DNA from: a virus
Lineage: Duplodnaviria > Heunggongvirae > Uroviricota > Caudoviricetes
Reading direction: 5' to 3' (one strand)
Virus record (IMG/VR): IMGVR_UViG_3300037067_004979
Coordinates: 10,733-74,732 of that record
Length of the DNA stretch: 64,000 bases
A program made the position numbers and the translations under genes. The notes under the pieces are model-generated. The model made no database searches, was not told where the DNA came from, and saw nothing but the letters and a program-made list of their open reading frames with translations. Below, piece after piece: positions 1,716-62,147 of this stretch. The stretch's first letter is position 1. The number at the start of each line of letters is the position of its first letter.

Positions 1716-4343
1716 ATGGGTAGAAGAGGACCACAACCTGGTGATATTGCTGGTAAGGTAAGGGTTATGGTACCAGCAGAAAAGAATGGTAAGAGATACT
1801 ATATACCTAGATATGTAACACAGGAAGCTGCATCAAAATACCAGCAATACACACCTGGTATGGAGGAGCAGGAACAATCCACAGGTAAAAAGAGACCAGA
1901 AAACTGGAAGGATCCAAGATTAAACCAGGTATATAATCTTCCACCAAATGATGAATCTAGATACCATTCTCACCAGGGATCACTAAAGTATCATCCTGTT
2001 CATCTCCCACATGACGATGATAATGTAAGCATAGAGCATCGTAATGAGAAGGATGCCTATGAAAATAGGTATTATGGCTCAAAGATGCAGAAACCTCTCT
2101 ATGAACAACTTGGTTTTGATCTTAATCGTAGTGTGCCAATAAACATGAGGGGATTGAGGCTAAAGGCAGATAAGTATGTGCATCCCAAGATAGGAAACTT
2201 CTATCTGTTTGATCACAAGGGATGGAGTTATGTTGTATCACCAGCCAACAAGATCACAAAACACTTCTATAATAAGTTAGATGGTGAGGATTTCATATTT
2301 AACTTGATAAGAGGGCCAAAGAAGTCATTTGAATCTAAATCACTCATACTAGATAAGATACAAAAGATGATACAGGCTTTCTCAAGTTATACATCTGGTA
2401 ACAATTCAGTCAGGATAGAGTATAATGGTAATGAATACTCTGTTTTGGTAAACAGCAACCCAATTATGCAGAGTGGTGATTTTGGATCAGCAATGTCAGA
2501 GTATTACAGACAGATAGGAGAGATAGTTAGACTGCAGGAGAGTGATCCAGACATCTCACTTAATATATTTGGGGATCAGGTTGTTAGAACAAACAGAGAG
2601 GCCATTGACAAGCTATCAATGATGGGTAAATCCATGGAAGCTGGGATGCTTAAGAATTTTGATTACTCTAATGTCAAGCTACCATTTGAGGATATCATTT
2701 TTAAGTATGAATCCCCCAGTAATCAGATAGGACAGGTACCAATACAGGAAGATATGGGGCAGGCTGCTGCAGAGACTGGTAATAAGCCTCGTAGATTAGA
2801 TGAAAACAGGGAGAGAAAACAGATTGGTTCTAATACATTTGAACTAAAGTCTATAGATAAGGATAGAGCTCAACGTATAGGTAGGAGCATTGGGATTGAT
2901 TTTGATAAGTATAATCTAGATCAATTCACAAGGGGCATAAATGTAGAGAGAGAACACGGTTCTAGGGATCCAGAAACCGATGTTATTGGTGATGACCCAT
3001 TTGCTGCCGGCAAGATTGCATGGGCACACCTAAAGGAAGTGCCAGACTACTACACCAAGTTAGAGATGGTGGAAAAGGAATTAAGAGATCTAGGCATGAG
3101 ACCCGCTCCAGAGGAAGCTCTACAAGATAGACACAGAGATGTTGATAGGCCGCATAAGGTAAGTCGTACCTTTCAACAGAGAAACTCTCCAAGTGAAGAG
3201 GTACCAATGGAGTTCAAGGATTTTCCGATGATGGCAGAGGGTGTACAAGCACATGAGAGTGTTAAGTTAGAGGGAACAGCTGATAAGATCGGTGGTAAAC
3301 CAAAACCAATAATTGGGAAGTCCTTTGGACCCATGATGGCAGTGGATAGAATTGGTGATAATCCCAAGCCAATAGATGGTAGAGACAGTGTTGGTAGCTT
3401 TTCTACAGAGCGTGATACCACATCTGAGCTAGAGAATCAAACTCAGGAGCAGCATGAGGTTGAGGAAAATAAGGAGCCATTCTATCACAAGAGATTTAAT
3501 ACTGATATGATCTATGACCAGTTAGAGGATATCCTTAAATCCCGCGGATTAATAGAGGGATCACAACCAATGGGTGTAAAGAGCATTGGTAATCAGGTAG
3601 AGCATGCAGTTTATCATGGCCTAAGAGATACTGTTAATGATTGGTTTTCTAGGATTGAACCCACCACACAACTTGATAAGGCTGTGCTGGATCTAAAGGC
3701 TGATCTTCTTAAGTGGGAGATTGGGGTGAGTAGAGATGTTGTAACAGATGTTAATGATATCTTTAATAAGGGTATTCAAGCTGGGATGGGAAATACAGGT
3801 ATTGCTGTTCCTGACAGATTAACTGGAATGTTTAACTATCAGATGTATAAACCAACTGGTATATCACCAGCTCTTGAGAATTTTCAAAACAGTGTCTTTG
3901 ACTCACTGTCTGGTATACTGAGAAAGCACTACGATAATGGCTTCCCAATTTACAGCACTAAGAGAGACATTGACTCATATCTCAGGAAAGCTAGATATAA
4001 CACCAGATTAATGATAAAGTCCGAGGTAGCCCAGATGGCCAACCTAGGCCAGATCATAGCATGGGAGCAGGATCCTGATAGGTACATGTATGAGTATTTC
4101 TGGAATGCAATTGATGATGATAGGATTAAGGTTATATCTAAGTCCAGACTGGATGGTAACCCATATGCATATCCTGAGATTCGTTTCCTCTGGGAAAACC
4201 AGATACAGATCATAGATGGTGTTGAGTACAATGACGTATTTAATCAGAGGTGTAGTATTTCCAGGGGTGATCTCCTTAGTAAAAGCTGGGATACAAATAG
4301 ATTTTCCTCTAGTGTGAATCTATTTAAGTCTACAATGATATGA
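1716..4343 (+). CDS. large virion-associated protein with MuF-like C-terminal region and N-terminal copy of the shared RYY module
   Basis: 875-aa ORF, RBS GAGGTGA; C-terminal YEYFWNAIDDDRIKVISKSRLDGNPYAYPE resembles phage Mu F/SPP1 gp7 head-morphogenesis signature (Y.W...D.R......LdG); N-term VRVMVPAEKNGKRYYIP similar to module in downstream paralogs. Confidence 0.55.
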   Translation: MGRRGPQPGDIAGKVRVMVPAEKNGKRYYIPRYVTQEAASKYQQYTPGMEEQEQSTGKKRPENWKDPRLNQVYNLPPNDESRYHSHQGSLKYHPVHLPHDDDNVSIEHRNEKDAYENRYYGSKMQKPLYEQLGFDLNRSVPINMRGLRLKADKYVHPKIGNFYLFDHKGWSYVVSPANKITKHFYNKLDGEDFIFNLIRGPKKSFESKSLILDKIQKMIQAFSSYTSGNNSVRIEYNGNEYSVLVNSNPIMQSGDFGSAMSEYYRQIGEIVRLQESDPDISLNIFGDQVVRTNREAIDKLSMMGKSMEAGMLKNFDYSNVKLPFEDIIFKYESPSNQIGQVPIQEDMGQAAAETGNKPRRLDENRERKQIGSNTFELKSIDKDRAQRIGRSIGIDFDKYNLDQFTRGINVEREHGSRDPETDVIGDDPFAAGKIAWAHLKEVPDYYTKLEMVEKELRDLGMRPAPEEALQDRHRDVDRPHKVSRTFQQRNSPSEEVPMEFKDFPMMAEGVQAHESVKLEGTADKIGGKPKPIIGKSFGPMMAVDRIGDNPKPIDGRDSVGSFSTERDTTSELENQTQEQHEVEENKEPFYHKRFNTDMIYDQLEDILKSRGLIEGSQPMGVKSIGNQVEHAVYHGLRDTVNDWFSRIEPTTQLDKAVLDLKADLLKWEIGVSRDVVTDVNDIFNKGIQAGMGNTGIAVPDRLTGMFNYQMYKPTGISPALENFQNSVFDSLSGILRKHYDNGFPIYSTKRDIDSYLRKARYNTRLMIKSEVAQMANLGQIIAWEQDPDRYMYEYFWNAIDDDRIKVISKSRLDGNPYAYPEIRFLWENQIQIIDGVEYNDVFNQRCSISRGDLLSKSWDTNRFSSSVNLFKSTMI

Positions 4344-7300
4344 ATGATATACTGTCTAGAATAGATGGTTTTCTTGTGAAGGCAAAGAAACATGGTGTAT
4401 CATATGCTGAGTATGTTAATAATACATCAATCAAGAGTGGGCATGATAAATTTAATGAGTATACCCCAAGTACACAGAGTAAAATCATTAAAAATCCTGC
4501 TGAGATATTAGATTATGATCTTGAGATTGGGGTAATTGATCAGGATGATTATGATAATATCATGGCATATCTTAAATCAATAAATAGTGAGCAGGCACCC
4601 CAACCACAGGGCCAAAAGGTATATCTCAAGCCTGGTGAGCACTCTCCTGAGGGTACCAGAGAGTATCAGGGCAAGCGTGGTGGGAGATACTACCTTGCTA
4701 CAGGCAAAACTGGATCAACTGGGGCAGAACAATATGACATTGATGCAGATTTAGATAGACAGATTAGGGAAGATCCTGTATTCTCTGATATGGTTAAGAC
4801 AGGTGGTGTGGGGGAATCAATCTATAGGGATATAGTTGGGTATCTTAAACTTGATAATAACCAACTGTTAGAGACATATCATCTTCGTGGTGATTCTGAT
4901 ATAAGTAATAAGATATTAAATGAGATAATAACTAGAAGAATTGCTAATGGTGATTTGAGTCTCAAGATTGATAAGACATATCTAATAGATTCTAGGCATG
5001 GCCTCATTGGGTATATATGGAGTGCCCCAAAAAACATAAAGATAGACTTTATCAAGAGTAACATAGATACTGATAATGTTAATATAGGTAGAGTTATACT
5101 GGATATTCTTGAAGATAACATAAATCTACCAGGTAGAGATAATCTATATCTTGATCTAGCACATGGATTGGGCTCTAAAAATTTAACTATAATGGAAAAC
5201 ATATTACATCATATCTCTAGTGACCATATCTCTGATAAGATCTTTATAAGAAGTAAATACCCAGAGGTGAGGAGTTTGGCCATGTCTAGAATATCAGATC
5301 CAGATTTAATCAGAAGAATGTTGAACAATGAGTTAGGTATGAGCCTTAAGAGTCCCTATATACTTGAACGAGGGTTATCTAGGGGTGATAAGGATCTGGT
5401 TACCAGCCCAAGATATCTTGAAGCCTGCGCTGCTGATGATAGGGTTAGTTTAGGACGTCTTCTTAATAGGAGTGGTGATCCTCTAACTATACCAGATATC
5501 TATGGTGTATATAAATCAGTACCAAGTGGTACGTTTATATCAATCATCTGGGGTTTAAATAGTGAAGAGGGCATACTTGATTTAATGAGATATAATGATC
5601 CTGTACTAAATAATTTGATTTTTAATAACAGAAATTTTGATAATCAATTCATATCCCAAATTATTGATAGTGATGATATAGATAAAACCAGTGACATGTG
5701 GCGTAACATACTATACGATACAGATAGTGAGGATATCATCAGTGGTAAGCTAGATGATCCTGACATTCAGACATCTCGTATAGCTCTATCTAGATTGATA
5801 GATCTTGGGGGTGTAAATCGTTTTGGTAATGATAACTGGGTGTTAACAGCATATAATCACACAAATGAGGATAATCTAGATTATGTTATATCTAAGAAAA
5901 GCCCAAAGTTAAGTAATCTCCTCTTTGATGAGATATTCATCAGTGATAAATTTAGTGTGGTTGATAAGGATGATGTGTTGGATTACTTTTCTAGATACAT
6001 ACCAGACGATGCCTTTGCAGAAAAGATAGTTGGGTACATGGATATCAATTCTGCTAAGGTAGAATCCATATTTTATGATTTTCCAGGACCAGACCTAGCT
6101 CTAAGGTTAAGAGATACAGAGAATGATGAATTGAGAAGAAAGATAGCTCTGTATCTAAGAGAAGAGGATATCAATGAATCTTATATGTTTGATAGCAATC
6201 TATATGTTAGAAGAGTAATTGCTGATAGATTAATGGATAAGGATAAGATACATCAGATGATAATTAATACTCCCTATGATTCATCTAATAATGAGGGTTC
6301 TCTCTATAATCGCATGATGGATAAATTACTGTGGAAAGCCTCCAGTGAGGATAAGATACATAAGTTTGATGAGTTATTGTCTAACTTTGCTAGGGATGAA
6401 CGTACATATATCTTAACATCAATACTAGCAGATGCTGAATATGATGTACTGTCACATGTTATAAATAACATTAATAACATACCAGATACACATCTTAGGG
6501 ATATCATGACAAACTGCTCTGCTGATGATATCATTAGACTATCTAAAATGGAGAGAATTCCTAAAGATAAAATTCTTACTACCAGATTAAAAAACATAGA
6601 GAATCTCGGTGGTGTTACTGCCATCAATAAATTTAGGGAAACTGGAGAGATTGATACCAATGCTATGAGGAAGGATTTTCTGGATAAGATAAGGAGAGTT
6701 GATGGGATTAATATTCAGGCTGAGGAAATTCATGATGATGATGAACCAGTTGGTCTAGATGAGTTTCTCCATCATCATAGAATTCATGCTGGGTTAAGAC
6801 AGGGATGGCTGTCTAGCTCAAATAGTAGTAAGTCTGCTCTGCTTAAGGAAGCTGCAAGAAGACTGTTTGGTGGGCACGTCTTTTATCATGATAATGCTAT
6901 TGCCAGTGATAAGAAGTGGGATGATGAGGTTACTCAATATAGTAAGGATAATAATATAGATATTGGAGAGGTTGAGAGTTATGTTAGAGATCTATATCAG
7001 ATGACCCAGCAATTACTATCTATTAGATTTCCTGGTAAGGAGGAGTTTACTCTCTGGAGGGGTTCATCTGAGGATGAGATTGCTGAGAAAACTGGAGAGC
7101 AAGATGAGTTTTACTTAACTCCTATTAAGATAAGGCAAAACTCTATCTCATCATGGACACTCAAGAAGAATGTTGCTGCATCATTTGGTAACACAATATT
7201 TGAGATCAAGGTACCCAAGAATGAGATCATAGCCAGCTATCTAATGTACTCATATTCTGGGTTTGAGGCCGAGATTCTTCTACATGGATCTGAGAATAGG

Positions 7301-7360
7301 GATGGATATATAGTACCAGCAAAGGGTATCTGGGAAGATATAACGATAAAGCATGGTTAA
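4340..7360 (+). CDS. polyvalent virion protein with C-terminal ADP-ribosyltransferase domain
   Basis: 1006 aa; KVYLKPGEHSPEGTREYQGKRGGRYYL module (nt 4616-4696); HEAT-like repeats (EVRSLAMSRISDPDLI, YVRRVIADRLMDKD); C-terminal LWRGSS ... SISSWT ... FEAEILL = R / S-x-S / E-x-E ART triad. Confidence 0.65.
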   Translation: MNDILSRIDGFLVKAKKHGVSYAEYVNNTSIKSGHDKFNEYTPSTQSKIIKNPAEILDYDLEIGVIDQDDYDNIMAYLKSINSEQAPQPQGQKVYLKPGEHSPEGTREYQGKRGGRYYLATGKTGSTGAEQYDIDADLDRQIREDPVFSDMVKTGGVGESIYRDIVGYLKLDNNQLLETYHLRGDSDISNKILNEIITRRIANGDLSLKIDKTYLIDSRHGLIGYIWSAPKNIKIDFIKSNIDTDNVNIGRVILDILEDNINLPGRDNLYLDLAHGLGSKNLTIMENILHHISSDHISDKIFIRSKYPEVRSLAMSRISDPDLIRRMLNNELGMSLKSPYILERGLSRGDKDLVTSPRYLEACAADDRVSLGRLLNRSGDPLTIPDIYGVYKSVPSGTFISIIWGLNSEEGILDLMRYNDPVLNNLIFNNRNFDNQFISQIIDSDDIDKTSDMWRNILYDTDSEDIISGKLDDPDIQTSRIALSRLIDLGGVNRFGNDNWVLTAYNHTNEDNLDYVISKKSPKLSNLLFDEIFISDKFSVVDKDDVLDYFSRYIPDDAFAEKIVGYMDINSAKVESIFYDFPGPDLALRLRDTENDELRRKIALYLREEDINESYMFDSNLYVRRVIADRLMDKDKIHQMIINTPYDSSNNEGSLYNRMMDKLLWKASSEDKIHKFDELLSNFARDERTYILTSILADAEYDVLSHVINNINNIPDTHLRDIMTNCSADDIIRLSKMERIPKDKILTTRLKNIENLGGVTAINKFRETGEIDTNAMRKDFLDKIRRVDGINIQAEEIHDDDEPVGLDEFLHHHRIHAGLRQGWLSSSNSSKSALLKEAARRLFGGHVFYHDNAIASDKKWDDEVTQYSKDNNIDIGEVESYVRDLYQMTQQLLSIRFPGKEEFTLWRGSSEDEIAEKTGEQDEFYLTPIKIRQNSISSWTLKKNVAASFGNTIFEIKVPKNEIIASYLMYSYSGFEAEILLHGSENRDGYIVPAKGIWEDITIKHG

Positions 7361-8549
7361 TACATATAACATAGATAACAACACAGATAACTCTGATTGG
7401 ATCCAGACAGTCAGGAGGTTAAATGAATTCAGTGATTTCAGAAAAACCTATCTGAGAACTGGCCAGAAACCTCCTAAGGGAAAGGAACTATATCAGGGGC
7501 CAAGAGGTGGGCACTTCTACCTTGCTAATGAGGATGATAAGTCTGAGGTTGAGTTCATGATTGATAATAATCTTATCTCTGAGTTAAGAGATAGTGTATT
7601 ATCCAACTGGTATCCAGTTATAAATAGGGTAGCATCATCTATACCAGATTGGATTACAAGAGATCTGAGAATACACATCAGTACCAATCTATATCTTGAA
7701 TCCAGGAAGATGTCAGAGGCAACAATTACTGGTAGGTATCTAGGGAAGGATGATATAATTATGATCAATCCACTCCTGCTTGTTATTAGTGATGAGGATG
7801 AATTGAGAATAAAGAGTGTTGATTATAATAATGAGATAAGATCCAGTGCATTTATATGTGTGTTAACTCATGAGCTTGGACACAGGGTAGAGAGAATACT
7901 ATACGATCACAGACCAAGATTGGTGTCTGATCTATTTGTTGAATATGAAAATACACCTGGTGCTGTTACTAGATATGGGAAAACCAATAAGAATGAGAGA
8001 TTTGCTGAGGCCTTCCTCTACTACAATCAGAATCCCAGAATTCTAGCAGGGAGAGACCCAACATCATATAAATTTATGAGGATGCACGTGTTTGATAACA
8101 GAGATATTGATAATCCAGTCTTAAAATCTGCTGATACTGGTGATATACCACTAGGGTCTGCCTGGATTGAGGATAGGGGGGCCTCCCTAAAATTCTTTGA
8201 GAAAGTCATTCGTGGAAAGAAGATTAGTGAATCTAAGAGAGATAAATCAAAGGATAATAAATCAGCTAATCCACCATTCATAACAATAGAGCCAGATCAG
8301 GGATTAATGCAGAAGTCTAAGATCTACTCTGAGATGGGTGAGGATAGCACAAAGACCACTGATGGCCCTAGAGGCCAACCACAGGAAGATCCACTTGAAA
8401 ATCCTGAGTATGGTTATGGTAATGCTGTTGGTAGCATGTCTATTGATAAGAGTGAGGGACTAGATTCTGTGAAGAAAAAAATAAGAGGGATAACACACGG
8501 TGATGCGGATGTTAAGAGTAAGCAAGACTATCCTTCAAGAGGAGAATAA
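7353..8549 (+). CDS. polyvalent protein with HExxH zinc-metallopeptidase motif
   Basis: KGKELYQGPRGGHFYLAN module near N-terminus; ICVLTHELGHRVE HExxH motif (nt ~7856-7894); start overlaps upstream stop. Confidence 0.6.
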   Translation: MVNTYNIDNNTDNSDWIQTVRRLNEFSDFRKTYLRTGQKPPKGKELYQGPRGGHFYLANEDDKSEVEFMIDNNLISELRDSVLSNWYPVINRVASSIPDWITRDLRIHISTNLYLESRKMSEATITGRYLGKDDIIMINPLLLVISDEDELRIKSVDYNNEIRSSAFICVLTHELGHRVERILYDHRPRLVSDLFVEYENTPGAVTRYGKTNKNERFAEAFLYYNQNPRILAGRDPTSYKFMRMHVFDNRDIDNPVLKSADTGDIPLGSAWIEDRGASLKFFEKVIRGKKISESKRDKSKDNKSANPPFITIEPDQGLMQKSKIYSEMGEDSTKTTDGPRGQPQEDPLENPEYGYGNAVGSMSIDKSEGLDSVKKKIRGITHGDADVKSKQDYPSRGE

Positions 8550-8970
8550 GAGGTGGGAATCCTATCAGATTGGTTCAAGAGTAAGCAAGAGAACCAAGTT
8601 ATTGATTGGTAACTCCCTCAGTATCATGGGATCCATCATAGGTAATGCAGATGATAATGTCAGAGCTGTTTATCATGGTGGTGAGTTACAGGGTGCTGTT
8701 GTCTATGGTGTTAGTAATGATGAGATGAGAGTTGCATTTATTGCTGTTGCCCCTTGGAATGTCTATGGTATGCCAGATAGACTGAGTGGGTGTGGGGCAT
8801 ACATGATGAGACATATTTTCAAAATAGTCAGCAGAGATGTTAAAATTAAGGGTGTATCACTGGTTGCCTTTGATGAGGCAGTCAATTTTTATAGGAAACT
8901 TGGATTTACTGAGAGAGGTGCATCAATGTTTATATCAAGAAGGAAGATCAATGGGAAACTGGGAAAATAG
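8500..8970 (+). CDS. GNAT family N-acetyltransferase
   Basis: VAFIAVAPW...RLSGCGAYMMRHI...FYRKLGF matches GNAT motifs A/B; overlaps both neighbours by short stretches (translational coupling). Confidence 0.55.
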   Translation: MMRMLRVSKTILQEENKRWESYQIGSRVSKRTKLLIGNSLSIMGSIIGNADDNVRAVYHGGELQGAVVYGVSNDEMRVAFIAVAPWNVYGMPDRLSGCGAYMMRHIFKIVSRDVKIKGVSLVAFDEAVNFYRKLGFTERGASMFISRRKINGKLGK

Positions 8971-10060
8971 AGCCAGAAAACTAGATTCTAGAAAGAAGCA
9001 GAGGGGATTTAAGACACACAATAAGGGTATGGCTAATCTACATGCTAATATTGCTAGTAAGAGATCCGCTGAGGCTGATGTGGTTCTTGATAAGATAAAT
9101 AGATTAACCAAGGGTAAGGTATACCTCTATGGTGATGAACACTCCCCTGAGAATACCCAGGAATTTAGAGGTCCTAAGGGTGCTAGATTCTACTACAGTG
9201 ATCAGTCAGGTGGTGGAGAAGTCCAACAATCACCAGACATATCCAGTTTAAATAGCAGAGAGATTGATGATAACACACTCCAAATTCTACAGAAGCAATC
9301 TGCTGTATGGAAGCAGTATGCAGAGAAATTTGGAGATGAGAACTCAGTTAATGCTGCATGGTTATTTGATGAGTTGGTTGGTGATATACAGGATTCTCAC
9401 ATACCACGTAGACTTAAATTTATATCATCTGACAGGGGCATTGAGAATGTTGCTGAGTTTAGGGATGTTAAGAAGAACAATGCCTACTACATTGATGTTC
9501 TAGCGTCTTCCCCACTAAATCAGGTTGGTTCAAGAGATAGAAGACCTGGTGGTGGTAATAAGCTACTCTATGATATATGCAGGGAAGCTGTTGATAATAA
9601 CAAGGATTACATCAAGTTAACCACTCTGGATGCTGCAAAACCATATTATCTCCAGAATGGATTTAGGGAATCCCAGACAGAGGGAGACATGATCTTATCA
9701 AGAGATGGTATTATGAGTTTTGTTAAGCAATATGAATCTAAACTTGGTAAGGCCATAGATATTGAGCCTGTCGCAATACCAGAGGGATCTAATATTAGAA
9801 AGGAGTTTGGTATGGCAGCTGATGTTAATACTCCCACATTTGGTGGTGGTTCAAGAAAAATCAGGGATAGAATCAAGATGATACTTGGGAAATCCCAAAA
9901 TCAAATAGATGACATACATGGGGAAGCTAAGCAGGTGGTACCTAAAACCCACATACAGAGAAGGGTTTTACATGAAGTAGAATATTTTGATGATGATAAT
10001 TTAAAAAAGAGTTTAATATTATATGAAGAAGGAGACAAATATTTTGTTGAAGTTATCTAA
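8951..10060 (+). CDS. polyvalent protein with RYY module and GNAT-like C-terminal domain
   Basis: Start placed at ATG 8951 (MGNWENRARK); track start 8837 would overlap the GNAT gene by 130 nt in another frame. KVYLYGDEHSPENTQEFRGPKGARFYY module (nt 9113-9196); YYIDVLAS...RDRRPGGGNKLLYDI...YYLQNGF GNAT-like. Confidence 0.5.
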   Translation: MGNWENRARKLDSRKKQRGFKTHNKGMANLHANIASKRSAEADVVLDKINRLTKGKVYLYGDEHSPENTQEFRGPKGARFYYSDQSGGGEVQQSPDISSLNSREIDDNTLQILQKQSAVWKQYAEKFGDENSVNAAWLFDELVGDIQDSHIPRRLKFISSDRGIENVAEFRDVKKNNAYYIDVLASSPLNQVGSRDRRPGGGNKLLYDICREAVDNNKDYIKLTTLDAAKPYYLQNGFRESQTEGDMILSRDGIMSFVKQYESKLGKAIDIEPVAIPEGSNIRKEFGMAADVNTPTFGGGSRKIRDRIKMILGKSQNQIDDIHGEAKQVVPKTHIQRRVLHEVEYFDDDNLKKSLILYEEGDKYFVEVI

Positions 10061-11372: not shown

Positions 11373-12557
11373 ATGGAAGACAAGAATCTATATAAGTCTA
11401 GGGATTATGATAAGGCTAATCAATTTGACAGGGTATTTCATAAGAGATATGAGTCTGGTTCATCCAAGATTGAGATTGGCCAGAGACCTGATAACATGGG
11501 TGTTGGTGGAAGAGCAATAGACATACTTCTTAATACCCCAATTTCTAAACTAGAATCAGTACTAAAGGCAGTTGGTGGTGTACCTGGTCAAAAGGCTGGT
11601 AGAAGAGTATATGTGGCACCAGGTGAAGCCCCACCCAAGGGTATTACTCTCTATAGAGGAAAGGAGGGTGGAAGATTCTATCTTGAAAACGAGTTTGAAC
11701 AGATGAAGGGATCACCATCTACCAGAGAAAACAAGCCTGATTATAAAAAAGAGCACTCATCTTTGTCTGATAGGGTCAAGTCTATTACTGAGAAGATGGA
11801 GAAGGAATACAACAATCTTGGTAATACTAAACCCAGAAATCCAGTAAATAGGTTTCAACCTGATCTACCACAAAATCAGGGTGTATTTAAGGGTAAGAAT
11901 CTAGCTACTGAGTATACACAAAAACCTGCTTCTCCAAAGTTTGAAGCTCCACAGGGTACTGTAAAGAACATCAAGCCCCCAAAGATTGAGAAGGAAGCTG
12001 GTCTTGGTGATGTTGGGTATAAGTCACCTGAGGTTGTATCTAAATCAATTAGTAGATTTCTGGCTAAACAGAATAATCCCTTTGCAATTGCTACTGCACA
12101 AGCTAAGAAGATGGGCTATCATAATTTTAAGGAGGGTACTCCTGGTGAGAAAAAGGTAGATGATATCTCTGAGGCTATCAAGGGCACAAAGAAGGTAGAG
12201 AAACAGAATCTTCCTAGCTTCAATCCAACTGGTAATCCAATGACTGGTATGGGTAACAAAGTAAAAGCTCAGGGCATAAAGAATAAACTTCTTGCTGGTC
12301 AAGGACAAGCTAAACTTGGTGCGGGTGGCAATATGCCGTCTAGTGCACAGAATGATATAGTAACTACAAATCAGCCACAAATACCTAAGACTATTGATCA
12401 AAGAAATCAAACCTTGTCAAGTAGGTCTGCTGGAATGTCTTCTCCAAAGATACAAGCTCCTGCAATGAGAAGTAGGGGTCCAAGAAATATACCATTTGCC
12501 CAATTTTCTTTGGCTGATAGAATAAATAAGTATATCCAGAAGAATGAAAAGAAATAG
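11373..12557 (+). CDS. Lys/Pro/Gly-rich protein carrying the RYY module (putative internal/ejection protein)
   Basis: RBS AGGAGGTAAC; RRVYVAPGEAPPKGITLYRGKEGGRFYLENE (nt 11601-11681); basic low-complexity C-terminal half. Confidence 0.5.
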   Translation: MEDKNLYKSRDYDKANQFDRVFHKRYESGSSKIEIGQRPDNMGVGGRAIDILLNTPISKLESVLKAVGGVPGQKAGRRVYVAPGEAPPKGITLYRGKEGGRFYLENEFEQMKGSPSTRENKPDYKKEHSSLSDRVKSITEKMEKEYNNLGNTKPRNPVNRFQPDLPQNQGVFKGKNLATEYTQKPASPKFEAPQGTVKNIKPPKIEKEAGLGDVGYKSPEVVSKSISRFLAKQNNPFAIATAQAKKMGYHNFKEGTPGEKKVDDISEAIKGTKKVEKQNLPSFNPTGNPMTGMGNKVKAQGIKNKLLAGQGQAKLGAGGNMPSSAQNDIVTTNQPQIPKTIDQRNQTLSSRSAGMSSPKIQAPAMRSRGPRNIPFAQFSLADRINKYIQKNEKK

Positions 12558-13058: not shown

Positions 13059-14651
13059 GTGAAAAAGATTCTAAATAGAGTAGAGCAAGAGATTGAGAAC
13101 AGAAATATAGGAGAGGATGAGTTATCTGATATACTATCCTCATTTGAGCCAGCAAAAAATAGACGAATAATTGCAGGGTATGCCTCAGTATCAATTGTTG
13201 ATAGAGAGGGGCATCGAATAAGTATTGCTGCTCTTAAGGATGCTGCCTCAAGATTTATGAAGAGTGGTTATCCCCTTCTAAATGTTTTTCACAGTGATAT
13301 ATCAGTTGGTAAGGTCTTGCCAAGATGGACTGATCCTGAAACAGGTAAGATCTGGGAATCAAGAGTTGATGATAAGGGTTGGTTTGTTGTCTGTGAACTA
13401 AGATCTGACATAGAGATAGCTGATAAGGTTTGGGAAGAGGTTGTTAAGGGTAATCTTAGATCATTCTCCATAGCTGGTTCATCTAAGGCTAAGCATCAGG
13501 CCTATGAGGGTGGCCAACAGTTTACATCAATTGATGAGCTGGATTTGGCAGAAATTACAATTTGTTTACCTGGTGATCAAAAAGTATGGACTAAGTCAGG
13601 TCTTAAAGATATTAAAGACATACAAATTGGTGAGGAAGTTATATCTCATAAAGCTAAATGGAGAAAAGTTACCAAAAAATTTGAAAGGCTAATATCTGAG
13701 AAAATAATTAAGATAACTACTTCAAAGGGATCAGTTATTATAACAAAGAATCATCCTGTCAGAACTTTAATTTATGGTGGACAAAATATTGGAACACATT
13801 ATGAATGGAAAGAAGCTGGTTTTCTTAATGAGGGAGATCTAATATCTTTATTATCATTTAGAGGTGTATGCCCAAGATGTGGTTCTCCGATTTTTATGAC
13901 TAAAGGAAATAGAAATAGAGATTATTGTTCTCTAAAATGTAGATATACTATTGGCAATAGAAGAGGCAAAACATATGCTTCTGGTGATAAAGGAGCTTTG
14001 AAACGTAAAAAGAAAATGGAAGAATTCTATTCTTTTGAAGAAAACAGAAAAAAGATGGGTGCTGGTGGTAGATCAACATGGAATATACGAAAAAATAACC
14101 CAGAAAAATTAAAAGAATGGTTTATGAGATTTAGATCTAAAGATAACTCTAATCATTTTGTGTCTGGAGAAAATCATAAAAAAACTAAACCAGAAAGAGA
14201 GCTAGAGATCATTCTTAAAGAGCTTGGCCTCAGTGAATGGAAGTTTACTGGTGATGGTTCTTATCCTATAGCAGGCAAGTTTCCTGATTTTTATGATGGT
14301 GATAAAAAGATAATCGAGGTATTTGGTGGATATTGGCATAAAAAGGAAGAAGAACAAGAAAGAATAGAACATTTCAGGAAACATGGTTATGATTGTATCA
14401 TTTTATGGGATCATCAATTTGGTGATAAGGCTAGCATTAGAGATACAGTTAGTCAATTTAGCAGAAATAAATTATATAAGATATTAAAGATAGAAGAAAT
14501 GGAATATTCTGGTCTTGTATATAATTTAGAGGTAGAAGAGGATAATTCATTCTGCACAAATATCTGTTTGGTACATAATTGTGAAACTCCAGTCAATCAG
14601 ATGAGTAAGTTTGACATACTATGGAATCCTGGAAGGGTGGATGTTTTTTGA
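13059..14651 (+). CDS. HK97-family prohead protease (S78/U35) interrupted by an intein
   Basis: GTG start behind AGAGGAG RBS; N-extein IIAGYASVSIVDREGHRI...PLLNVFHSD...RSFSIAGSS matches HK97 gp4-type protease (His, Ser); intein begins CLPGDQKVWT and ends LVHN|CETPV. Confidence 0.8.
   Translation: MKKILNRVEQEIENRNIGEDELSDILSSFEPAKNRRIIAGYASVSIVDREGHRISIAALKDAASRFMKSGYPLLNVFHSDISVGKVLPRWTDPETGKIWESRVDDKGWFVVCELRSDIEIADKVWEEVVKGNLRSFSIAGSSKAKHQAYEGGQQFTSIDELDLAEITICLPGDQKVWTKSGLKDIKDIQIGEEVISHKAKWRKVTKKFERLISEKIIKITTSKGSVIITKNHPVRTLIYGGQNIGTHYEWKEAGFLNEGDLISLLSFRGVCPRCGSPIFMTKGNRNRDYCSLKCRYTIGNRRGKTYASGDKGALKRKKKMEEFYSFEENRKKMGAGGRSTWNIRKNNPEKLKEWFMRFRSKDNSNHFVSGENHKKTKPERELEIILKELGLSEWKFTGDGSYPIAGKFPDFYDGDKKIIEVFGGYWHKKEEEQERIEHFRKHGYDCIILWDHQFGDKASIRDTVSQFSRNKLYKILKIEEMEYSGLVYNLEVEEDNSFCTNICLVHNCETPVNQMSKFDILWNPGRVDVF
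13563..14579 (+). mobile_element. intein (339 aa) with zinc ribbon and Vsr/DUF559-like homing endonuclease domain
   Basis: Block A CLPGDQKVW after extein AEITI; block G VHN followed by Cys; internal CPRCGSPIF...YCSLKCR zinc ribbon and GDGSYPIAGKFPDFYDGDKKIIEVFGGYWH...HGYDCIILWDHQF nuclease paralogous to ORF 10023. Confidence 0.65.
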
Positions 14652-16368: not shown

Positions 16369-16621
16369 TGATATTAGGTGTCCCTGTGGTTATGATGTGC
16401 ATGGTATCTCTAGGTATGATCTTCACCCAAAATATGTAGATGATACATTACGATGTGATGAGTCTTGCCCCGATTCAAAGGATCATTTGTATGCATGCTG
16501 TTATCTATGTGATAGCAGAGATAAATGCAGTGTATTTACAGCTACCTTTGGTGGTCTTGAGGGTATAATAAGAGAAAAAAAGATCCGAGATCATCTGAAG
16601 GAACACTATGGTAAGTCCTGA
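16355..16621 (+). CDS. Cys-rich small protein (CC-x-L-C subfamily), tandem paralog
   Basis: MSICDDIRCPCGY...CCYLCDSRDKC; same N-terminus MSIC(E/D)DI as previous. Confidence 0.5.
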   Translation: MSICDDIRCPCGYDVHGISRYDLHPKYVDDTLRCDESCPDSKDHLYACCYLCDSRDKCSVFTATFGGLEGIIREKKIRDHLKEHYGKS

Positions 16622-16694
16622 GTATAGCTCAGTCTGGTAGAGCACTTGGCCTGGGACCAAGGGGTCGTTGGTTCGAATCCAACTACTCAGACCA
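16618..16694 (+). tRNA. tRNA-Pro (anticodon UGG), CCA encoded
   Basis: Cloverleaf read by hand: acceptor CTGAGTA/TACTCAG, D-arm GCTC-AGTCTGGTA-GAGC, anticodon arm CTTGG-CCTGGGA-CCAAG, T-arm GTTGG-TTCGAAT-CCAAC, ACCA 3' end. Confidence 0.75.
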
Positions 16695-20366: not shown

Positions 20367-21083
20367 ATGATTGAATTAACGCCAATTGAGAAAAAAATAC
20401 TGAGTGTATTTAAGGCTAGGGGAGCAGATGATGCTCTTAACATTGTTAAAGCACTAAAACAGAAACCAATCTACTATCAGGTGAGTGGCCTGAGACAGGA
20501 ATATAACCTAAGATTTGTTAAGGCTCTGATGAAGACATCCAGTCCAGCTGGAGCCAATGAGTACATCATATACTCCAATGGTGATTTGGGTAGTTACCAC
20601 AATGAAAAATACTTCTCAGGTTCGTTTACTGTGGGTGGATATCACAGAATCTATAATGGTTCTAATATCTCAGCTATTGAGACACCCAGCTGGGTATCTT
20701 CCTGCTTTGGCAAGACTGTTTCTGATGAGATCATTCAATACATAACAGATAATCTAAAAAGAGAGCAGGTTGTGGGAAGTCTGATTAGTAGAATTTGTGC
20801 AGGTTTAATTAAGAATATGGGTGAGGAGGATTGGGGATACACAGTGTTTAAGTATCTCATGACTGATGAGCATCTAACTGCACTGGATCTAACACTAGAG
20901 AATCTAATTCAACCTAATAAGAAATATGGTGCGCGTGACCTACAGGAGTATATCAGTGATATACTTAAGGGATACATCAATGATAACTTTGAGAACTACC
21001 TATCTGGGGACAGGTCATTTATGAATGTATCTCTGTCAGAGTGTTTGAGAAAATCAATGATGCTGAGTTTACTAAGAAGGTAG
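20367..21083 (+). CDS. hypothetical protein
   Basis: Start placed at ATG 20367 after GTGGAGGATTTCAA; 238 aa. Confidence 0.5.
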   Translation: MIELTPIEKKILSVFKARGADDALNIVKALKQKPIYYQVSGLRQEYNLRFVKALMKTSSPAGANEYIIYSNGDLGSYHNEKYFSGSFTVGGYHRIYNGSNISAIETPSWVSSCFGKTVSDEIIQYITDNLKREQVVGSLISRICAGLIKNMGEEDWGYTVFKYLMTDEHLTALDLTLENLIQPNKKYGARDLQEYISDILKGYINDNFENYLSGDRSFMNVSLSECLRKSMMLSLLRR

Positions 21084-21120: not shown

Positions 21121-22152
21121 ATGAAACCATCACAAGTACTGGAGGCAATGGCTGTCTCCTACAAGAACAACGGACCACGTATCATTCTCATTGGTAGCCC
21201 CGGCACTGCAAAGACAAGTCTGGTAAATCAGCTGCCAGCATACATGAAGAAACCCAATCTTCCTGTATACACATTCCAGGCAACACTCTATGCACCTGAT
21301 GAGGTAAAAGGTTTACCCACTCTTGTTACCAAGTCTGATGGTAGGCAAGAGGCTGTATTCCTTCCGTTTCAGGATATGCCATCTGCACCGGAGGGTATAC
21401 TCAACATTGATGACCTGCCACATGCACCGACAGCTACACAGAATGCCTTTATGAGACTGATTCTTGAAAACATCTGTGGGGCATGGAATCTGGGTGGTAT
21501 CAGACCATTTGCCACAGGAAACCGGTCAAGTGATCGAGCTGGTGCAAAGGATCTGCAATCTGCAATGGCCAACAGGTTTACCAGAATAGAGGTAGACATC
21601 AACTATGAGGATTGGAGATCCTGGGCAATAGGACAGAACATACGACCAGAGATCATATCATTTCTTGGTGCTCCCTATGGAGCAGAGTGGCTCAACAATG
21701 ACAAGTTTGATCCTGGTAGGCAGGTCAATCCCACCCCAAGGTCATGGGAGTTTGCCTCAAGGTGGTTTGAGGCCTTCAAGGGACAGGGTGAGGTGCTTCA
21801 TGAGTGTCTGAATGGATGCATTGGTGGAGCGGCTACATCAAAGTTCATGGGCTGGTTGAAGGTCTACTCTGAGTTGCCAGATCTTAATCTGATCATGCAG
21901 GGTGCTAAGACATACCCTGAAAAACTTGACATCTTCTATGCCTGCATATCTGGTCTGGTACAACTAGCCAGAAACTCAACAAAGAGAGCACAGGCTTTCC
22001 AGACTCTGGTTGATTATGCCACCACCATACCTGATAAGTATATTGAGATGGGTGCCATGCTCAGTAAAGACCTATTTCTTTTGGATGAGAAGGTCTTTAC
22101 CAAGTGCAACATCAGCAAGTGGCAAAACAGATATGAGGATGTAATTCTCTAA
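21121..22152 (+). CDS. MoxR-like AAA+ ATPase
   Basis: Walker A LIGSPGTAKTS, Walker B LNIDDL, sensor/arginine finger region; size 343 aa typical of MoxR/CbbQ family; GC-richer than flanks. Confidence 0.7.
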   Translation: MKPSQVLEAMAVSYKNNGPRIILIGSPGTAKTSLVNQLPAYMKKPNLPVYTFQATLYAPDEVKGLPTLVTKSDGRQEAVFLPFQDMPSAPEGILNIDDLPHAPTATQNAFMRLILENICGAWNLGGIRPFATGNRSSDRAGAKDLQSAMANRFTRIEVDINYEDWRSWAIGQNIRPEIISFLGAPYGAEWLNNDKFDPGRQVNPTPRSWEFASRWFEAFKGQGEVLHECLNGCIGGAATSKFMGWLKVYSELPDLNLIMQGAKTYPEKLDIFYACISGLVQLARNSTKRAQAFQTLVDYATTIPDKYIEMGAMLSKDLFLLDEKVFTKCNISKWQNRYEDVIL

Positions 22153-22206
22153 TATTCCAACGCAGTCCATCATTCACATGGTGGACTGAATGGAGGATTA
22201 AAGAAA

Positions 22207-23373
22207 ATGGATAAGAAAGTAATAAGAGCTAAGGTACAACTGATGTTGAAGTACCCCTTCTTTGGGGCTCTGTCAGCTCTTCTTGAACTTGTAGATTATG
22301 ATGGTAATACCTTTGCTACTGATGGAAAGCACATCTTTGTACCACCGAAGGAATACTATGATGGCACCAAGGGGCTTCTCTATGATGACTCACAACTGAT
22401 AACAGTCATAGCCCATGAAACTGCTCACTGTGCATTCCTGCATAGCTACAGAGAGGGCAATCGTAACCACATGGGATGGAATGTAGCTGGTGATCTTGCC
22501 ATTAATCCAATCCTGAAACAGGCAGGGCTGAGTGTTAATCCGGCCTGGTTATACAACAAGGATTATGAGGGGATGACTGCAGAGAGAATATATGAGCTTC
22601 TACCAAAGGTTTATGTTTCCTCTTCAGGTGGTGGATCTGGGTCTGGATCTGGGGGTGGCATGTCTGTTCCAGGAAATATGAATGACATCAAGGACTCAAA
22701 GGGTCAGAATAAGTCTAAGGGTAAGGACACTAACGATAGATACATGACTGAAAATGACTGGAAGGATGCTGTTGCTCAGGCTGCTCAGGATGCAAAGCAG
22801 AAGGGAAAGCTACCAGGTGGTCTTGAACAGTACATAGAGGAATTTCTTAATCCAAAGATTCCCTGGCAACAGGTGCTCATGAGATACCTGCAAACATCAA
22901 GGGGATGCAGTGACTATCGTAGTTATCCATATCGCCGGGCTCATCTTCACAGAGGATTATACATGAGTTCACTTGCTGGAGACAGCATTGAGTTGGTCTG
23001 TGCAATTGATACCTCTGGATCCATTGGTGATGTTGAGTTTAAATCATTCCTGGGTGAGATATGTGGAATATGTCAAGCCTTTGGTGAATATCAGATACAC
23101 CTATTTCAGTGTGATGCTCAAATTCATGAGTATACTGTGATAGAATCAGAGGCTGATGTTCCTCACAAGATGAAGGGTCGTGGTGGTACCAGTTTTGTAC
23201 CGGTATTTGAGAAGGTTAATGAACTTGAGCTTGATGATCTACCCCTGGTGTACTTCACCGATCTGTGTGGTGATTTCCCATCAGAGGGTAAATCTAACAC
23301 ATATTGGGTTGTTAGGGAGGAGTTTGCCAAGCAATTTAAGCCACCATTTGGGGAGGTCATCGAGCTAGACTAA
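22207..23373 (+). CDS. VWA-domain protein with N-terminal HExxH metallopeptidase-like domain (DUF2201-like partner of MoxR)
   Basis: AHETAHCAFLH HExxH; Gly/Ser linker; MIDAS motif CAIDTSGSIGD; adjacency to AAA+ ATPase. Confidence 0.65.
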   Translation: MDKKVIRAKVQLMLKYPFFGALSALLELVDYDGNTFATDGKHIFVPPKEYYDGTKGLLYDDSQLITVIAHETAHCAFLHSYREGNRNHMGWNVAGDLAINPILKQAGLSVNPAWLYNKDYEGMTAERIYELLPKVYVSSSGGGSGSGSGGGMSVPGNMNDIKDSKGQNKSKGKDTNDRYMTENDWKDAVAQAAQDAKQKGKLPGGLEQYIEEFLNPKIPWQQVLMRYLQTSRGCSDYRSYPYRRAHLHRGLYMSSLAGDSIELVCAIDTSGSIGDVEFKSFLGEICGICQAFGEYQIHLFQCDAQIHEYTVIESEADVPHKMKGRGGTSFVPVFEKVNELELDDLPLVYFTDLCGDFPSEGKSNTYWVVREEFAKQFKPPFGEVIELD

Positions 23374-29882: not shown

Positions 29883-29957
29883 TGGTACCCCCGGCAGGAG
29901 TTGAACCTGCATTCTCTGTTTAGAAGACAGATGCTCTATCCACTGAGCTACGGAGGC
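29883..29957 (-). tRNA. tRNA-Arg (anticodon UCU), CCA encoded
   Basis: Reverse complement GCCTCCG-TA-GCTC-AGTGGATA-GAGC-A-TCTGT-CTTCTAA-ACAGA-GAAT-GCAGG-TTCAACT-CCTGC-CGGGGGT-A-CCA. Confidence 0.8.
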
Positions 29958-31428: not shown

Positions 31429-31515
31429 TGGCGGAGTCGGTGAGATTTGAACTCACGATGCTGTTAGCATGACCGCTTTCAAGACGGCTCCGATAAACCA
31501 CTCCGGCACGACTCC
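31429..31515 (-). tRNA. tRNA-Ser (anticodon UGA), type II, CCA encoded
   Basis: Reverse complement GGAGTCG...GCCGT-CTTGAAA-GCGGT, long variable arm CATGCTAACAGCATC, T-arm GTGAG-TTCAAAT-CTCAC, CGACTCC-G-CCA. Confidence 0.75.
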
Positions 31516-34473: not shown

Positions 34474-35847
34474 GTGGCAGATATTTCATTAGGTGAATAT
34501 TTAGCGCAAGCACAGAGATCCATGGGTGGAGGCCAATTCGGAAGAGTTAGTGGTCCTCTTAGTGGATATCTCTTTGGTCCGGATTTTTTTAGGAAACAGA
34601 CCTATCTTCAGGTAGCGGATACATTTACTGCTACATATGGTAAAAAGGTTTGGGATGCCCTAAATAACAAAACTGTAACATTCAATGCAATTAAAAAAGT
34701 TGATTGGGGTCCTACGGTTGGTTGGCGTCTTAGGACAGATCGTGGTAAGACTGGTGCTTCTTCTGAAACCATAACAAAGCGTTCTCGTCCTGTTACAGAG
34801 ACAGGGTCTCTTCCAACTATAGATGTATCAAATTATGTTGGTGTCTATAGCTATCCAAAGAACATAGTGTCTACCTTTGGTGTGAGCTTGAAATCTCAGG
34901 CTGTGTCAGCACTTGAAGGCGGCATTGGGAACCAATTTGCTGTGGAGCAGGAGGGTGCATCTCGTGACCACATCAAAGAAATAAACCAGGAAATAATGGC
35001 TTCTGGTGGATATCTGATGTCTGGTGGAAGTTCTGATTATGGTATAGTTGGTACTGCTACTGCTACCTTTGCTCTGGCTGATCACTTTAAGATCGGTGAT
35101 GGAGTGGCAAAATCTGGTACTGATACATCCAGGACAGTTACATATGTTACCACAGCTGATGGACATGTAAATGCAACATCTCTCAGTGGTGCAGATGGTT
35201 ATACTGTTTATGTAAAATCAAGGGCTGGTCTTACTAGCATTGATGATATCGTAGCAGATGATTCTCAGAAGATTGGCAATGTAACAACCCCCATAGATGT
35301 ATATAATCTTACCACAAGAACAGCTGGTGGGTATGCTGCTGCAGCCTACTGCAGTGATAATGCAGGTTCTGGCAGAGATCTTACTCTAAAGTTAGTTGAT
35401 CAGTGCTTTGAGAATATACGTCAGAATGGTGGTGAACCAAAACTTATCATAACTGGTCTTGATCAGTATGATAACTTTAACCAGCTTTTACAGGCTCAAC
35501 AGAGATTTGTAGATGTGACTGATTACATTGTTGGTGCTGGGGATGAGAGGACCTACCCTGGAACAAGAGCAGGCTTCCAGCTTGCTACCTACAGGGGTGT
35601 TCCCATTCTTCCTGATCCTGATACTCCAAAATCAATGAGTTCAGCAGATGCCTTACTTGGTAGTAATTTATATGTACTGGATACTGATTATCTGGAAACT
35701 GCTGTCATGTATCCTACTCAGTACATTGAAAATAGAGACTACTTTGCGGCAAATGCTCTTGTGATAAGAGGCATGTTTATCACAATGGCAGAAACCAGGG
35801 CTCTTAGGTTTGATGTACATGCAAAGCTGTCTGACTTAAATACATAA
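34474..35847 (+). CDS. putative major capsid protein
   Basis: 457 aa after scaffold-like gene, RBS AGGAGGTGAG, followed by strong terminator; family not provable by eye. Confidence 0.5.
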   Translation: MADISLGEYLAQAQRSMGGGQFGRVSGPLSGYLFGPDFFRKQTYLQVADTFTATYGKKVWDALNNKTVTFNAIKKVDWGPTVGWRLRTDRGKTGASSETITKRSRPVTETGSLPTIDVSNYVGVYSYPKNIVSTFGVSLKSQAVSALEGGIGNQFAVEQEGASRDHIKEINQEIMASGGYLMSGGSSDYGIVGTATATFALADHFKIGDGVAKSGTDTSRTVTYVTTADGHVNATSLSGADGYTVYVKSRAGLTSIDDIVADDSQKIGNVTTPIDVYNLTTRTAGGYAAAAYCSDNAGSGRDLTLKLVDQCFENIRQNGGEPKLIITGLDQYDNFNQLLQAQQRFVDVTDYIVGAGDERTYPGTRAGFQLATYRGVPILPDPDTPKSMSSADALLGSNLYVLDTDYLETAVMYPTQYIENRDYFAANALVIRGMFITMAETRALRFDVHAKLSDLNT

Positions 35848-45910: not shown

Positions 45911-45911
45911 T

Positions 45912-46631: not shown

Positions 46632-46640
46632 GGAGGAAAA

Positions 46641-51707: not shown

Positions 51708-51710
51708 TGA

Positions 51711-61100: not shown

Positions 61101-62147
61101 ATGGGCTATGTGATTCGTGGAGAGAATTTTAAGGTAACCTATGCAGTGGAATCAGCGTATGGCACAGATCCTGGTACTGCAAGTCTGGTAAATTCATTTG
61201 GTGTGGTTCAAACTGCTAACATAACTGATCCACAGATTGATTACATGCCATTCTGGGGTATGAGTACTGGACAGTATAGAAACTGGTGGATTACCTACAA
61301 GGGTAAGATATCACTGGGTATGTCAATTCCAGATATAGTTCTTCTTAATGGTGCCCCCCTGTTTCTTCCACTAGGGTCTTGTACAACCACAGGAACAAAT
61401 CCATATACTCACACAATGGCAGAAACATATGATCTGCCAACAATAACAACTCATGTTACGTATACTGATACCAATGATGCTGACGTACTCATGAGAAGAT
61501 TCTGTGGGGGTAAGGTTGGTAGAGCTACATACTCTGCCACAGAGGGTGGATTCCTGACAATGGCTTTAGAGGATATACAGTTTAAGAATCTTTATCATAA
61601 TAAATCTGGACATACTTGGTATAGTGCAAATGTTGCAGATGTAACACCATCATATCCTTGCACAGAACCATACCTATTTTCATATGGGTCTCTTACACTA
61701 GATGGATCAGAGTTTGCTCGTGTCAAGGAATGGAGATTAAGTGTTGATAATGCTCTAGAACCAAAATACTATGTTACCAATGATGCAATTAGTCAATTAC
61801 CATATGAGCATAGAGAGGGTAGAAGGCAATATCAGATGTCAGTAACATGTGATATAGAGGATGCCGCCTTATATCAGGAACTAATTGACCAGGGTACATA
61901 CTCAAGTGTATATAAGGGATTTGTAGCAACAATGGTATTTACCAGGGGATCAAATGATACAATCACATTCACCACACCATCAAGTGGTTCAGTTGCTTGT
62001 GGTGGTGGTAATATGGGATGTTTAATAAAGACTGCACCTCACTCCATAGTGTCTGATCCTATAGTTCCAGTATCATTAGATATAATTTGTAGAAGCTTAA
62101 GCATTGTTTCTGTTGATGCAGTATCTACCTATAGTGGTAGTGTTTAA
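61101..62147 (+). CDS. putative major tail protein
   Basis: 348 aa immediately upstream of G/GT chaperone pair. Confidence 0.45.
   Translation: MGYVIRGENFKVTYAVESAYGTDPGTASLVNSFGVVQTANITDPQIDYMPFWGMSTGQYRNWWITYKGKISLGMSIPDIVLLNGAPLFLPLGSCTTTGTNPYTHTMAETYDLPTITTHVTYTDTNDADVLMRRFCGGKVGRATYSATEGGFLTMALEDIQFKNLYHNKSGHTWYSANVADVTPSYPCTEPYLFSYGSLTLDGSEFARVKEWRLSVDNALEPKYYVTNDAISQLPYEHREGRRQYQMSVTCDIEDAALYQELIDQGTYSSVYKGFVATMVFTRGSNDTITFTTPSSGSVACGGGNMGCLIKTAPHSIVSDPIVPVSLDIICRSLSIVSVDAVSTYSGSV

Follow-up and report, generated by a model that had tools for sequence, protein, structure and literature searches.

A predicted DraT-like ADP-ribosyltransferase domain ends a large head-module protein of a probable archaeal tailed virus

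We analysed a 64,000-nucleotide (nt) stretch of DNA from a tailed virus (positions 10,733 to 74,732 of the IMG/VR record IMGVR_UViG_3300037067_004979; this whole 64-kb stretch is hereafter called the window) and focused on a gene located at 4340..7360, whose 1006-amino-acid (aa) product ends in a domain predicted to be a DraT-like ADP-ribosyltransferase (ART). Coordinates refer to the window, and the genes described between 1716 and 14651 lie on the plus strand. The ART gene, delimited from the list of open reading frames (ORFs) and its translation, overlaps the upstream gene by 4 nt at its start and the downstream gene by 8 nt at its end, and a 106-kb Joint Genome Institute (JGI) contig and a Logan contig each carry an identical 1006-aa protein. 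The layout of the protein comprises an N-terminal region, a motif of 34 aa, a long helical region and the C-terminal DraT-like domain. The latter (6782..7339; aa ~815-1000) consists of a helical N-terminal part followed by a beta-sandwich catalytic core. An earlier note on this DNA, made from the sequence alone, had placed an ART domain at the C-terminus, which agrees with our results, and had let it begin at 6850; we put its start further upstream, at about aa 815 (nt ~6782).

We found that aa 820-971 of the protein match the Pfam family DRAT (PF07357) at E=3.8e-16, scoring 59.5 bits where the curated cutoff is 25, and that the threshold of this family is also passed by most of the relatives tested. 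The match is not full-length: model positions 86-235 of 256 are aligned, and the N-terminal third of DraT has no counterpart. As for the type of enzyme, the earlier note had proposed the C3/VIP2/T4-Alt type, and this proposal had to be abandoned for a DraT-like family, since a tblastn search of 50,697 phage records with aa 801-1006 returned nothing at E<=1e-3 and the Alt/VIP2-type family PF03496 (ADPrib_exo_Tox) scores 16.2 bits on the 1006-aa protein, under its cutoff of 23.4, so that membership of Alt/VIP2 was rejected. No match was obtained by blastn with the ART gene against the same phage records, nothing was found for the 1006-aa protein in PHROGs or NCBIfam, and sequence searches of the PDB with the single sequence and with a profile gave no meaningful match.

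The three sequence elements on which the ART had originally been recognised, FTLWRGSSEDE, IRQNSISSWTLKK and YSGFEAEILLHGS, are indeed present in this order. A loose R..S-x-S..E-x-E pattern also appears in 30% of whole-protein shuffles and, when the last 170 aa alone are shuffled, in 7%; thus, it is not evidence alone, and the profile evidence is decisive. Relatives were collected by an exhaustive HMMER search with the C-terminal 226 residues against 1.84 billion representative proteins. This search yielded 77 relatives, 35 of them at E<=1e-10, and word-indexed protein searches (with the whole protein, the C-terminal domain or a profile) returned the protein itself or one relative only. In most relatives the domain is C-terminal, and the lengths of the proteins that carry it are very different.

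Conservation was counted in an alignment of 61 domains that share ~25-40% identity. We determined that R907, G908 and E978 occur in all 61 relatives, S938, W823 and F949 in 60, E976 and N934 in 56 and S937 in 55. By alignment and model, R907-G908 ([Y/W]-R-G; 7058..7063, with R907 at 7058-7060) is located on strand 1 of the ART core, S937-S938-W939-T940 (7148..7159, with S937/S938 at 7148-7153), the counterpart of the Ser-Thr-Ser (STS) motif, on strand 2, and E976-A-E978 (ExE; 7265..7273) at the end of the ADP-ribosylating turn-turn (ARTT) loop and the start of strand 5. The arginine and the ExE pair had thus been read correctly before, and the serine motif, taken as S935-x-S937, was slightly out of register: the conserved unit is S937-S938-W-[T/S], and position 935 varies between S, P and A. 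In an hhalign alignment with the PF03496 ART of gp115 of the haloarchaeal virus HVTV-1, S938 stands opposite the first serine of STS and E976-x-E978 opposite E-x-D. Conservation extends into the helical part that precedes the catalytic core (W823, S826/S827, L835/K836) and that lies within the DRAT match.

AlphaFold2, run on aa 781-1006 with an alignment of 26 sequences, gave a confident model of the ART region, with a predicted local distance difference test score (pLDDT) of 87.8 and a predicted template modelling score (pTM) of 0.85. The predicted model contains the split beta-sandwich ART fold expected of the arginine-serine-glutamate (R-S-E) clade of the ADP-ribosyltransferase superfamily, so the fold whose absence would have spoken against the original proposal was found. 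R907 falls in strand 902-909 (pLDDT ~96), S937/S938 fall in strand 936-940 and strand 978-982 begins with E978; in the model, this placement is the canonical R-S-E layout. Among predicted viral structures (BFVD), the best matches (E 3e-9 to 7e-7) are multidomain proteins of uncultured tailed phages, a protein of Bacillus phage SP-15, one of an uncultured archaeal virus and a 'phage head morphogenesis domain' protein, and annotated viral ARTs rank lower in the list. It might still be argued that the resemblance in R, S and E is fortuitous, given how often the loose pattern arises in shuffles, or that the domain is a structural relic that has lost its catalytic activity. We regard this as hardly credible, because the Pfam match, the conservation of the catalytic residues in 61 relatives at such low identity and the confident ART fold speak against it; the profile, the conservation and the predicted fold together effectively refute it. 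The C-terminus of the protein is, as judged by profile and modelled structure, an ART domain of the DraT-like, R-S-E type, and we predict that it is very probably functional.

The relatives reveal with which other domains the DRAT domain is joined. We found a prohead protease-DRAT fusion (protein P0020), a methyltransferase-DRAT fusion (P0003) and a GNAT-HEAT-DRAT fusion (P0023). HEAT/LRV repeats combined with DRAT are clear in P0002 (LRV E=9e-22), P0007, P0023 and several ORFs of IMG/VR contigs (loci L002 and L003). On one 69-kb viral contig, IMGVR_UViG_3300027852_000040, there are five DRAT paralogues, of which three are arranged in tandem and several have HEAT/LRV repeats; they are located at L002 6301-10513 and L003 7582-10552, and methyltransferase genes follow. 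We also searched genome contigs with a degenerate DNA pattern, which returned 17 stretches, two of them true relatives. These are L017 (JACOXG010000010.1, 109,932 bp), binned into a metagenome-assembled genome (MAG) of Daviesbacteria (candidate phyla radiation, CPR), and L018 (CAYSNL010000001.1, 109,520 bp), binned into a MAG of Woesearchaeota (DPANN). The DRAT ORFs of both are 263 aa long, with identical scores and alignment coordinates against the hidden Markov model (HMM), and the two contigs are probably near-identical viral genomes mis-binned into cellular MAGs.

In turn, the long helical region (4787..6679; aa ~150-780) is possibly a degenerate HEAT/LRV-like alpha-solenoid. When aa 127-800 were modelled with AlphaFold2 from the single sequence, the result was entirely helical (47 short helices) and of low confidence (pLDDT 48). 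HEAT-like repeats had been claimed for this protein in the earlier note; Pfam, however, finds no HEAT or LRV match in the first 790 residues even at E<=10, and what stands of the claim is a single unit above shuffles together with the clear HEAT/LRV-DRAT architecture of relatives. This unit (aa 618-641, DSNLYVRRVIADRL...; 6191..6262) was detected with a repeat HMM built from relatives and scores 7.2 bits, where the best of 200 shuffles reached 4.5; it is the sole unit above chance. In addition, BLASTP aligns the protein to the repeat region of P0002 with E=0.003, and the repeat regions of many relatives give weak recurrent matches to aa ~590-645. On this modelled and aligned evidence, a degenerate alpha-solenoid with HEAT-like repeats is plausible.

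The N-proximal motif links the ART protein with its neighbours. Its consensus over ~34 aa is KvYvKP.E.PP.G.....G.[KR]GG.YYE, and the motif profile was built from 19 instances, with matches listed at E 1e-8 to 5e-16. In the ART protein it occupies aa 88-121, with the core KVYLKPGEHSPEGTREYQGKRGGRYY (4601..4702; motif HMM domain E=1e-14). We found further copies in a 398-aa zincin protein (7431-7532; E=4e-15), a 407-aa GNAT-like protein (9104-9205; E=5e-16) and a 394-aa protein (11595-11687; E=1.4e-10); within the window, the motif is confined to these four proteins, all encoded between a MuF-like gene and a protease gene. It is also present in 14 of the 77 relatives, with up to three copies in a single protein, whose recognised domains they flank. 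At another locus, L005, it is carried by the portal, prohead-protease, DRAT and RelA/SpoT ORFs and by two others; several ORFs of L004 carry it as well, as does an ORF adjacent to the DRAT gene of the Woesearchaeota-binned contig (L018). In HVTV-1, the carriers are gp115 (L006 16554-20561) and gp116 (20542-21015) only, in the ~100 kb scanned (all but record positions 50001-51999). A tblastn search of all phage records with a 38-aa version of the motif retrieved haloarchaeal zeta-toxin proteins (E 0.03-0.06), the sole other match, to a Synechococcus phage (E=3), being at chance level. No family of Pfam or PHROGs covers the 34-aa motif. Taken together, the motif-bearing enzymes include ARTs of two kinds, DraT-like and Alt-like, as well as GNATs, a zeta-toxin kinase, a RelA/SpoT-type enzyme and a lethal-factor-like zincin. 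Since the motif is found both on such diverse enzymes of the head module and on the protease and portal, which are necessarily inside the procapsid, its most economical reading, by inference, is that it may serve as a head-incorporation signal or as a processing signal for the prohead protease.

The ART gene is embedded among head-morphogenesis genes. The portal gene lies ~6.7 kb 5' of it on the same contig, outside the window, and the order is portal, several small genes, an 875-aa MuF-like protein, the ART protein, the 398-aa zincin, a GNAT, the 407-aa GNAT-like protein, three genes and the protease. The upstream 875-aa protein (1716..4343) combines a DUF5661 domain (Pfam E=1.3e-15) with a divergent MuF-like C-terminus, which Pfam misses and which aligns to the MuF region of HVTV-1 gp114 (pairwise E=5e-5). 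Downstream, the 398-aa protein (7353..8549) is an anthrax-lethal-factor-like zincin with an HELGH motif (Pfam ATLF E=1.1e-6, 28.9 bits against a cutoff of 27.4), which could process neighbouring proteins or be a second effector. The 407-aa protein (8837..10060) contains a weak GNAT-like region (Acetyltransf_10, E=0.15). The small GNAT ORF (8500-8970, +) overlaps its reading frame by 134 nt, and probably the true start of the 407-aa gene is an internal Met near 8951, or the two form a split or frameshifted pair. The 394-aa protein (11373..12557), a carrier of the shared motif, belongs to no Pfam family. The module is closed by a prohead-protease-like gene of the XkdF/S78 type (13059..14651; a weak Peptidase_S78_2 match, E=0.003) that appears to contain an intein (Intein_splicing E=7e-9). 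The intein spans aa 196-507, including a zinc-ribbon-like insert, and an intein in a head-maturation protease is unusual.

A similar layout was found in L005 and in HVTV-1. L005 has the order portal, prohead protease, a 534-aa protein, DRAT protein, a 289-aa protein, RelA/SpoT and major capsid protein (MCP). Its RelA/SpoT-type nucleotide pyrophosphokinase (L005 11430-12236, +; E=1.9e-22), two genes 3' of DRAT, bears the shared motif.

Membership of the DraT family raises the question of a reversible DraT/DraG-like system, or of a toxin-antitoxin pair in which the ART would be the toxin half, used for example in superinfection exclusion or dormancy control; pairs of ART and ADP-ribosylglycohydrolase (ARG) do occur in some phages (PMC9503650). 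We found neither an ADP-ribosylglycohydrolase (DraG/ARH) nor a Macro domain in the 64-kb window, of which 25 larger ORFs were scanned singly and 69 further ORFs in addition (~42 kb more of the source contig lie outside this scope), and this argues against a reversible pair; one of the DraT/DraG type inside the window was rejected. Moreover, the genome with five paralogues shows no partner in the adjoining ORFs scanned, and a 1006-aa protein with repeats and a module-wide motif is unlike the compact toxins of such pairs. We therefore consider this explanation very improbable. An HD_4-type domain is present among the smaller ORFs of the window.

Several features lie further from the ART gene. 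The region 21121-23373 (+) encodes a MoxR-like AAA_5 ATPase followed by a DUF2201 metallopeptidase/VWA protein (E=5.5e-34), a gene pair that recalls an annotated VWA gene of HVTV-1. In the stretch that separates capsid from tail genes (39634-47414, +), we found glycosyltransferases, a glycosyltransferase-methyltransferase fusion and a GDP-mannose 4,6-dehydratase, the last ~50% identical to homologues of cyanophages and uncultured phages; a possible role of this cluster is glycosylation of the virion or of the host surface. Four tRNA genes (Pro-TGG, Arg-TCT, Ser-TGA and Ile-TAT) are located at 16618-16694 (+) and, on the minus strand, at 29883-29957 and 31429-31590, three of the four in a minus-strand island at ~28-33.5 kb where the GC skew reverses.

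As for the identity of the virus, its MCP (34474..35847), the upstream portal and the tail tube protein (61101..62147) were compared with the 50,697 phage records. The matches were to HVTV-1, HCTV-1, HCTV-5, HHTV-2, HCTV-2 and one Methanofastidiosa virus, the lone exception being a weak partial match of the tail tube to a Bacillus phage. A related IMG/VR contig encodes an MCP that shares 39% identity with the HVTV-1 MCP from end to end and 35% with the window MCP in the C-terminal ~200 residues. The G+C content is low (~36%), and the source contig (106 kb) is similar in size to the genome of HVTV-1 (102 kb). Because the three structural proteins match almost only haloarchaeal tailed viruses, we conclude from these comparisons that we are most likely dealing with a tailed virus of archaea, a distant relative of Druskaviridae.

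We propose the following scenario. The ART domain (aa ~815-1000) would be a catalytically competent mono-ADP-ribosyltransferase of the R-S-E clade, in which R907 and S938 would hold NAD+ and the E976-x-E978 pair would transfer one ADP-ribose, most likely to an arginine of a protein target. The helical HEAT/LRV-like middle region would pick the target or act as an extended spacer. Together with its sister enzymes (the zincin, the GNAT-like protein and others), the ART protein would be taken up into the procapsid and would reach the host along with the DNA, where host proteins would be modified at the start of infection, as by T4 Alt. The activity of the enzyme, its specificity for arginine, its packaging and ejection and the nature of its target are here inferred by analogy and from context. 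The scenario as a whole, that of a packaged and injected arginine-specific ART of a probable archaeal tailed virus, is the one that we favour, with moderate confidence. The expansion of paralogues whose repeat regions differ would be in keeping with an arms race over targets.

The ExE enzymes DraT, cholera toxin, iota toxin and ART2 modify arginine, the target of DraT being Arg101 of NifH, and it is by analogy with these known ARTs that an arginine target is proposed. A different substrate would be implied if the enzyme were an NAD+ glycohydrolase depleting or altering the NAD+ pool or NAD-derived immune signals, or if it modified DNA or RNA like pierisin, Scabin, DarT or, through RNAylation, ModB. 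This seems improbable to us: the best-matching family, DraT, is a protein-arginine ART, the ExE pair is conserved (E976 in 56 and E978 in 61 of 61 relatives), which is typical of arginine-directed protein ARTs, and a large repeat domain suits protein-protein recognition.

Packaging and delivery of the ART protein, as opposed to its catalysis, are proposed on account of the fusions in relatives, the synteny with HVTV-1, the motif and the tendency of phage ARTs towards head packaging. About 44% of phage ARTs sit in head-packaging contexts (PMC9503650), and T4 Alt is described as packaged in the head and injected (PMC5512222). Head association is further supported by the protease-DRAT fusion P0020 and by the BFVD relative that is a 'phage head morphogenesis domain' protein. 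The earlier note had called the 1006-aa protein a virion protein without giving evidence for it; with the position in a portal-MuF-protease module, the fusions in relatives and the shared motif as its basis, this designation appears probable. The earlier suggestion of an injected, host-modifying enzyme analogous to T4 Alt is, in the same vein, the best reading of the gene context; its bacterial RNA polymerase target does not carry over beyond analogy, since the virus is probably archaeal.

The weak side of this proposal is that the evidence for packaging is one of context alone, and the same context can be read in another way. The enzyme may be active and remain unpackaged, working late in the infected cell like T4 ModA/ModB on host proteins or on the virus's own head, portal or packaging proteins, or shielding the packaging machinery from defence. 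Such a role would agree with the suggestion that ARTs near packaging genes may counter immunity directed at portal or terminase (PMC9503650), and other enzymes of the module (GNAT, zincin) could likewise act on virion proteins. Relatives, however, fuse the domain to the prohead protease (P0020) and to a MuF-type head protein, both of which are internal head components, and the shared motif is also found on the portal and protease ORFs of L005. We therefore judge an unpackaged enzyme rather unlikely and retain the packaged and injected ART as the preferred interpretation.

A broader hypothesis can be derived from the motif. It could be a previously undescribed capsid-targeting signal by which archaeal tailed viruses load a changeable arsenal of enzymes for co-injection with their DNA, and the HEAT-DraT-like ARTs, with up to five paralogues per genome, could represent a diversifying family of injected arginine-ARTs directed against archaeal host proteins. 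We put this forward as a tentative possibility; of all that was found here, it is the motif hypothesis that could prove important more widely.

The ART protein can be compared with several known systems. The ART domain is a member of the Pfam DraT family and not a DraT orthologue. It resembles DraT in that this is the best-matching family and in the R-S-E residues and the helical region before the core, which lies within the match, and differs in that it forms the end of a 1006-aa viral protein encoded in a head module, that no DraG is encoded in the window and that NifH is an implausible target. With the C3, VIP2 and iota toxins it shares ~9-18% identity; in place of STS the window ART has S-S-W-[T/S], and it possesses the DraT-type N-terminal helical part and lacks any component for secretion or translocation.

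A comparable association is known from polyvalent proteins and from MuF-effector fusions in phages, in that ART, zincin, GNAT and methyltransferase domains are tied to head proteins and predicted to be injected (PMC5512222, PMC9503650). The ARTs described in polyvalent proteins are of H-Y-D types (Tox-ART-HYD2/N4; PMC5512222), whereas the window ART is of the R-S-E, DraT-like type. Archaeal viruses lie outside the coverage of the polyvalent-protein study, and the motif goes without mention in the passages of it that were consulted. Pfam recognised one enzymatic domain and no second effector domain in the 1006-aa ORF, which is accordingly not a polyvalent protein, and relatives of its ART (P0003, P0020 and P0023) are true multi-enzyme fusions. 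In the window, the enzymes are split into adjacent genes, and the ART, zincin and GNAT-like proteins each possess their own copy of the motif.

In bacteriophages, the packaging of ARTs in the head is recognised as a 'first strike', for which T4 Alt, an enzyme that ADP-ribosylates host RNA polymerase and other proteins, is the model. The window protein shares with Alt the R-S-E clade, the ExE pair, a large size with a C-terminal ART and a late, head-associated gene context that suggests co-injection (PMC5512222, PMC9503650). The differences are that no sequence relationship is detectable and that the host here is probably archaeal.

The closest parallel is HVTV-1, where the slot after the MuF protein gp114 is occupied by gp115, whose 1313 residues include a zeta-toxin kinase domain and, at the C-terminus, an ART of PF03496 (E=1.4e-8). 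This protein, like gp114 of HCTV-5, belongs to a related virus lineage and is encoded after MuF and before the protease and MCP genes. It is likewise large, ends in an R-S-E ART and carries the 34-aa motif in its N-proximal part. In contrast to the window protein, its ART is that of PF03496, with the two alignable at the profile level only (hhalign E=8e-4, probability 25%), and a zeta-toxin kinase domain stands where the window protein has helical repeats. Since gp115 is in the slot directly after the MuF gene, the window gene appears as its positional counterpart with a non-orthologous ART. We know of nothing comparable to head-packaged ARTs that has been studied in archaeal viruses beyond the annotation of HVTV-1 and HCTV-5. 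In these two viruses an 'ADP-ribosyltransferase' annotation is listed among metabolic genes (PMC8651126).

Head-linked ARTs of phages and the annotations in HVTV-1 and HCTV-5 have already been described, so the kind itself is known. What is new is new in degree, namely the DraT-like R-S-E family, the probable archaeal host, the HEAT/LRV-DRAT combination with its expansion of paralogues and the module-wide motif. Relative to HVTV-1 and HCTV-5, a different, DraT-like ART family has been recruited to the genomic slot of gp115 in their relatives, where it occurs in combination with HEAT/LRV repeats and has multiplied to several paralogues in one genome. One short motif is common to the ART protein and to neighbours with unrelated enzyme domains and is also present in HVTV-1, a cultivable virus, so that both capsid targeting and the targets of injected enzymes become testable in an archaeal cell.

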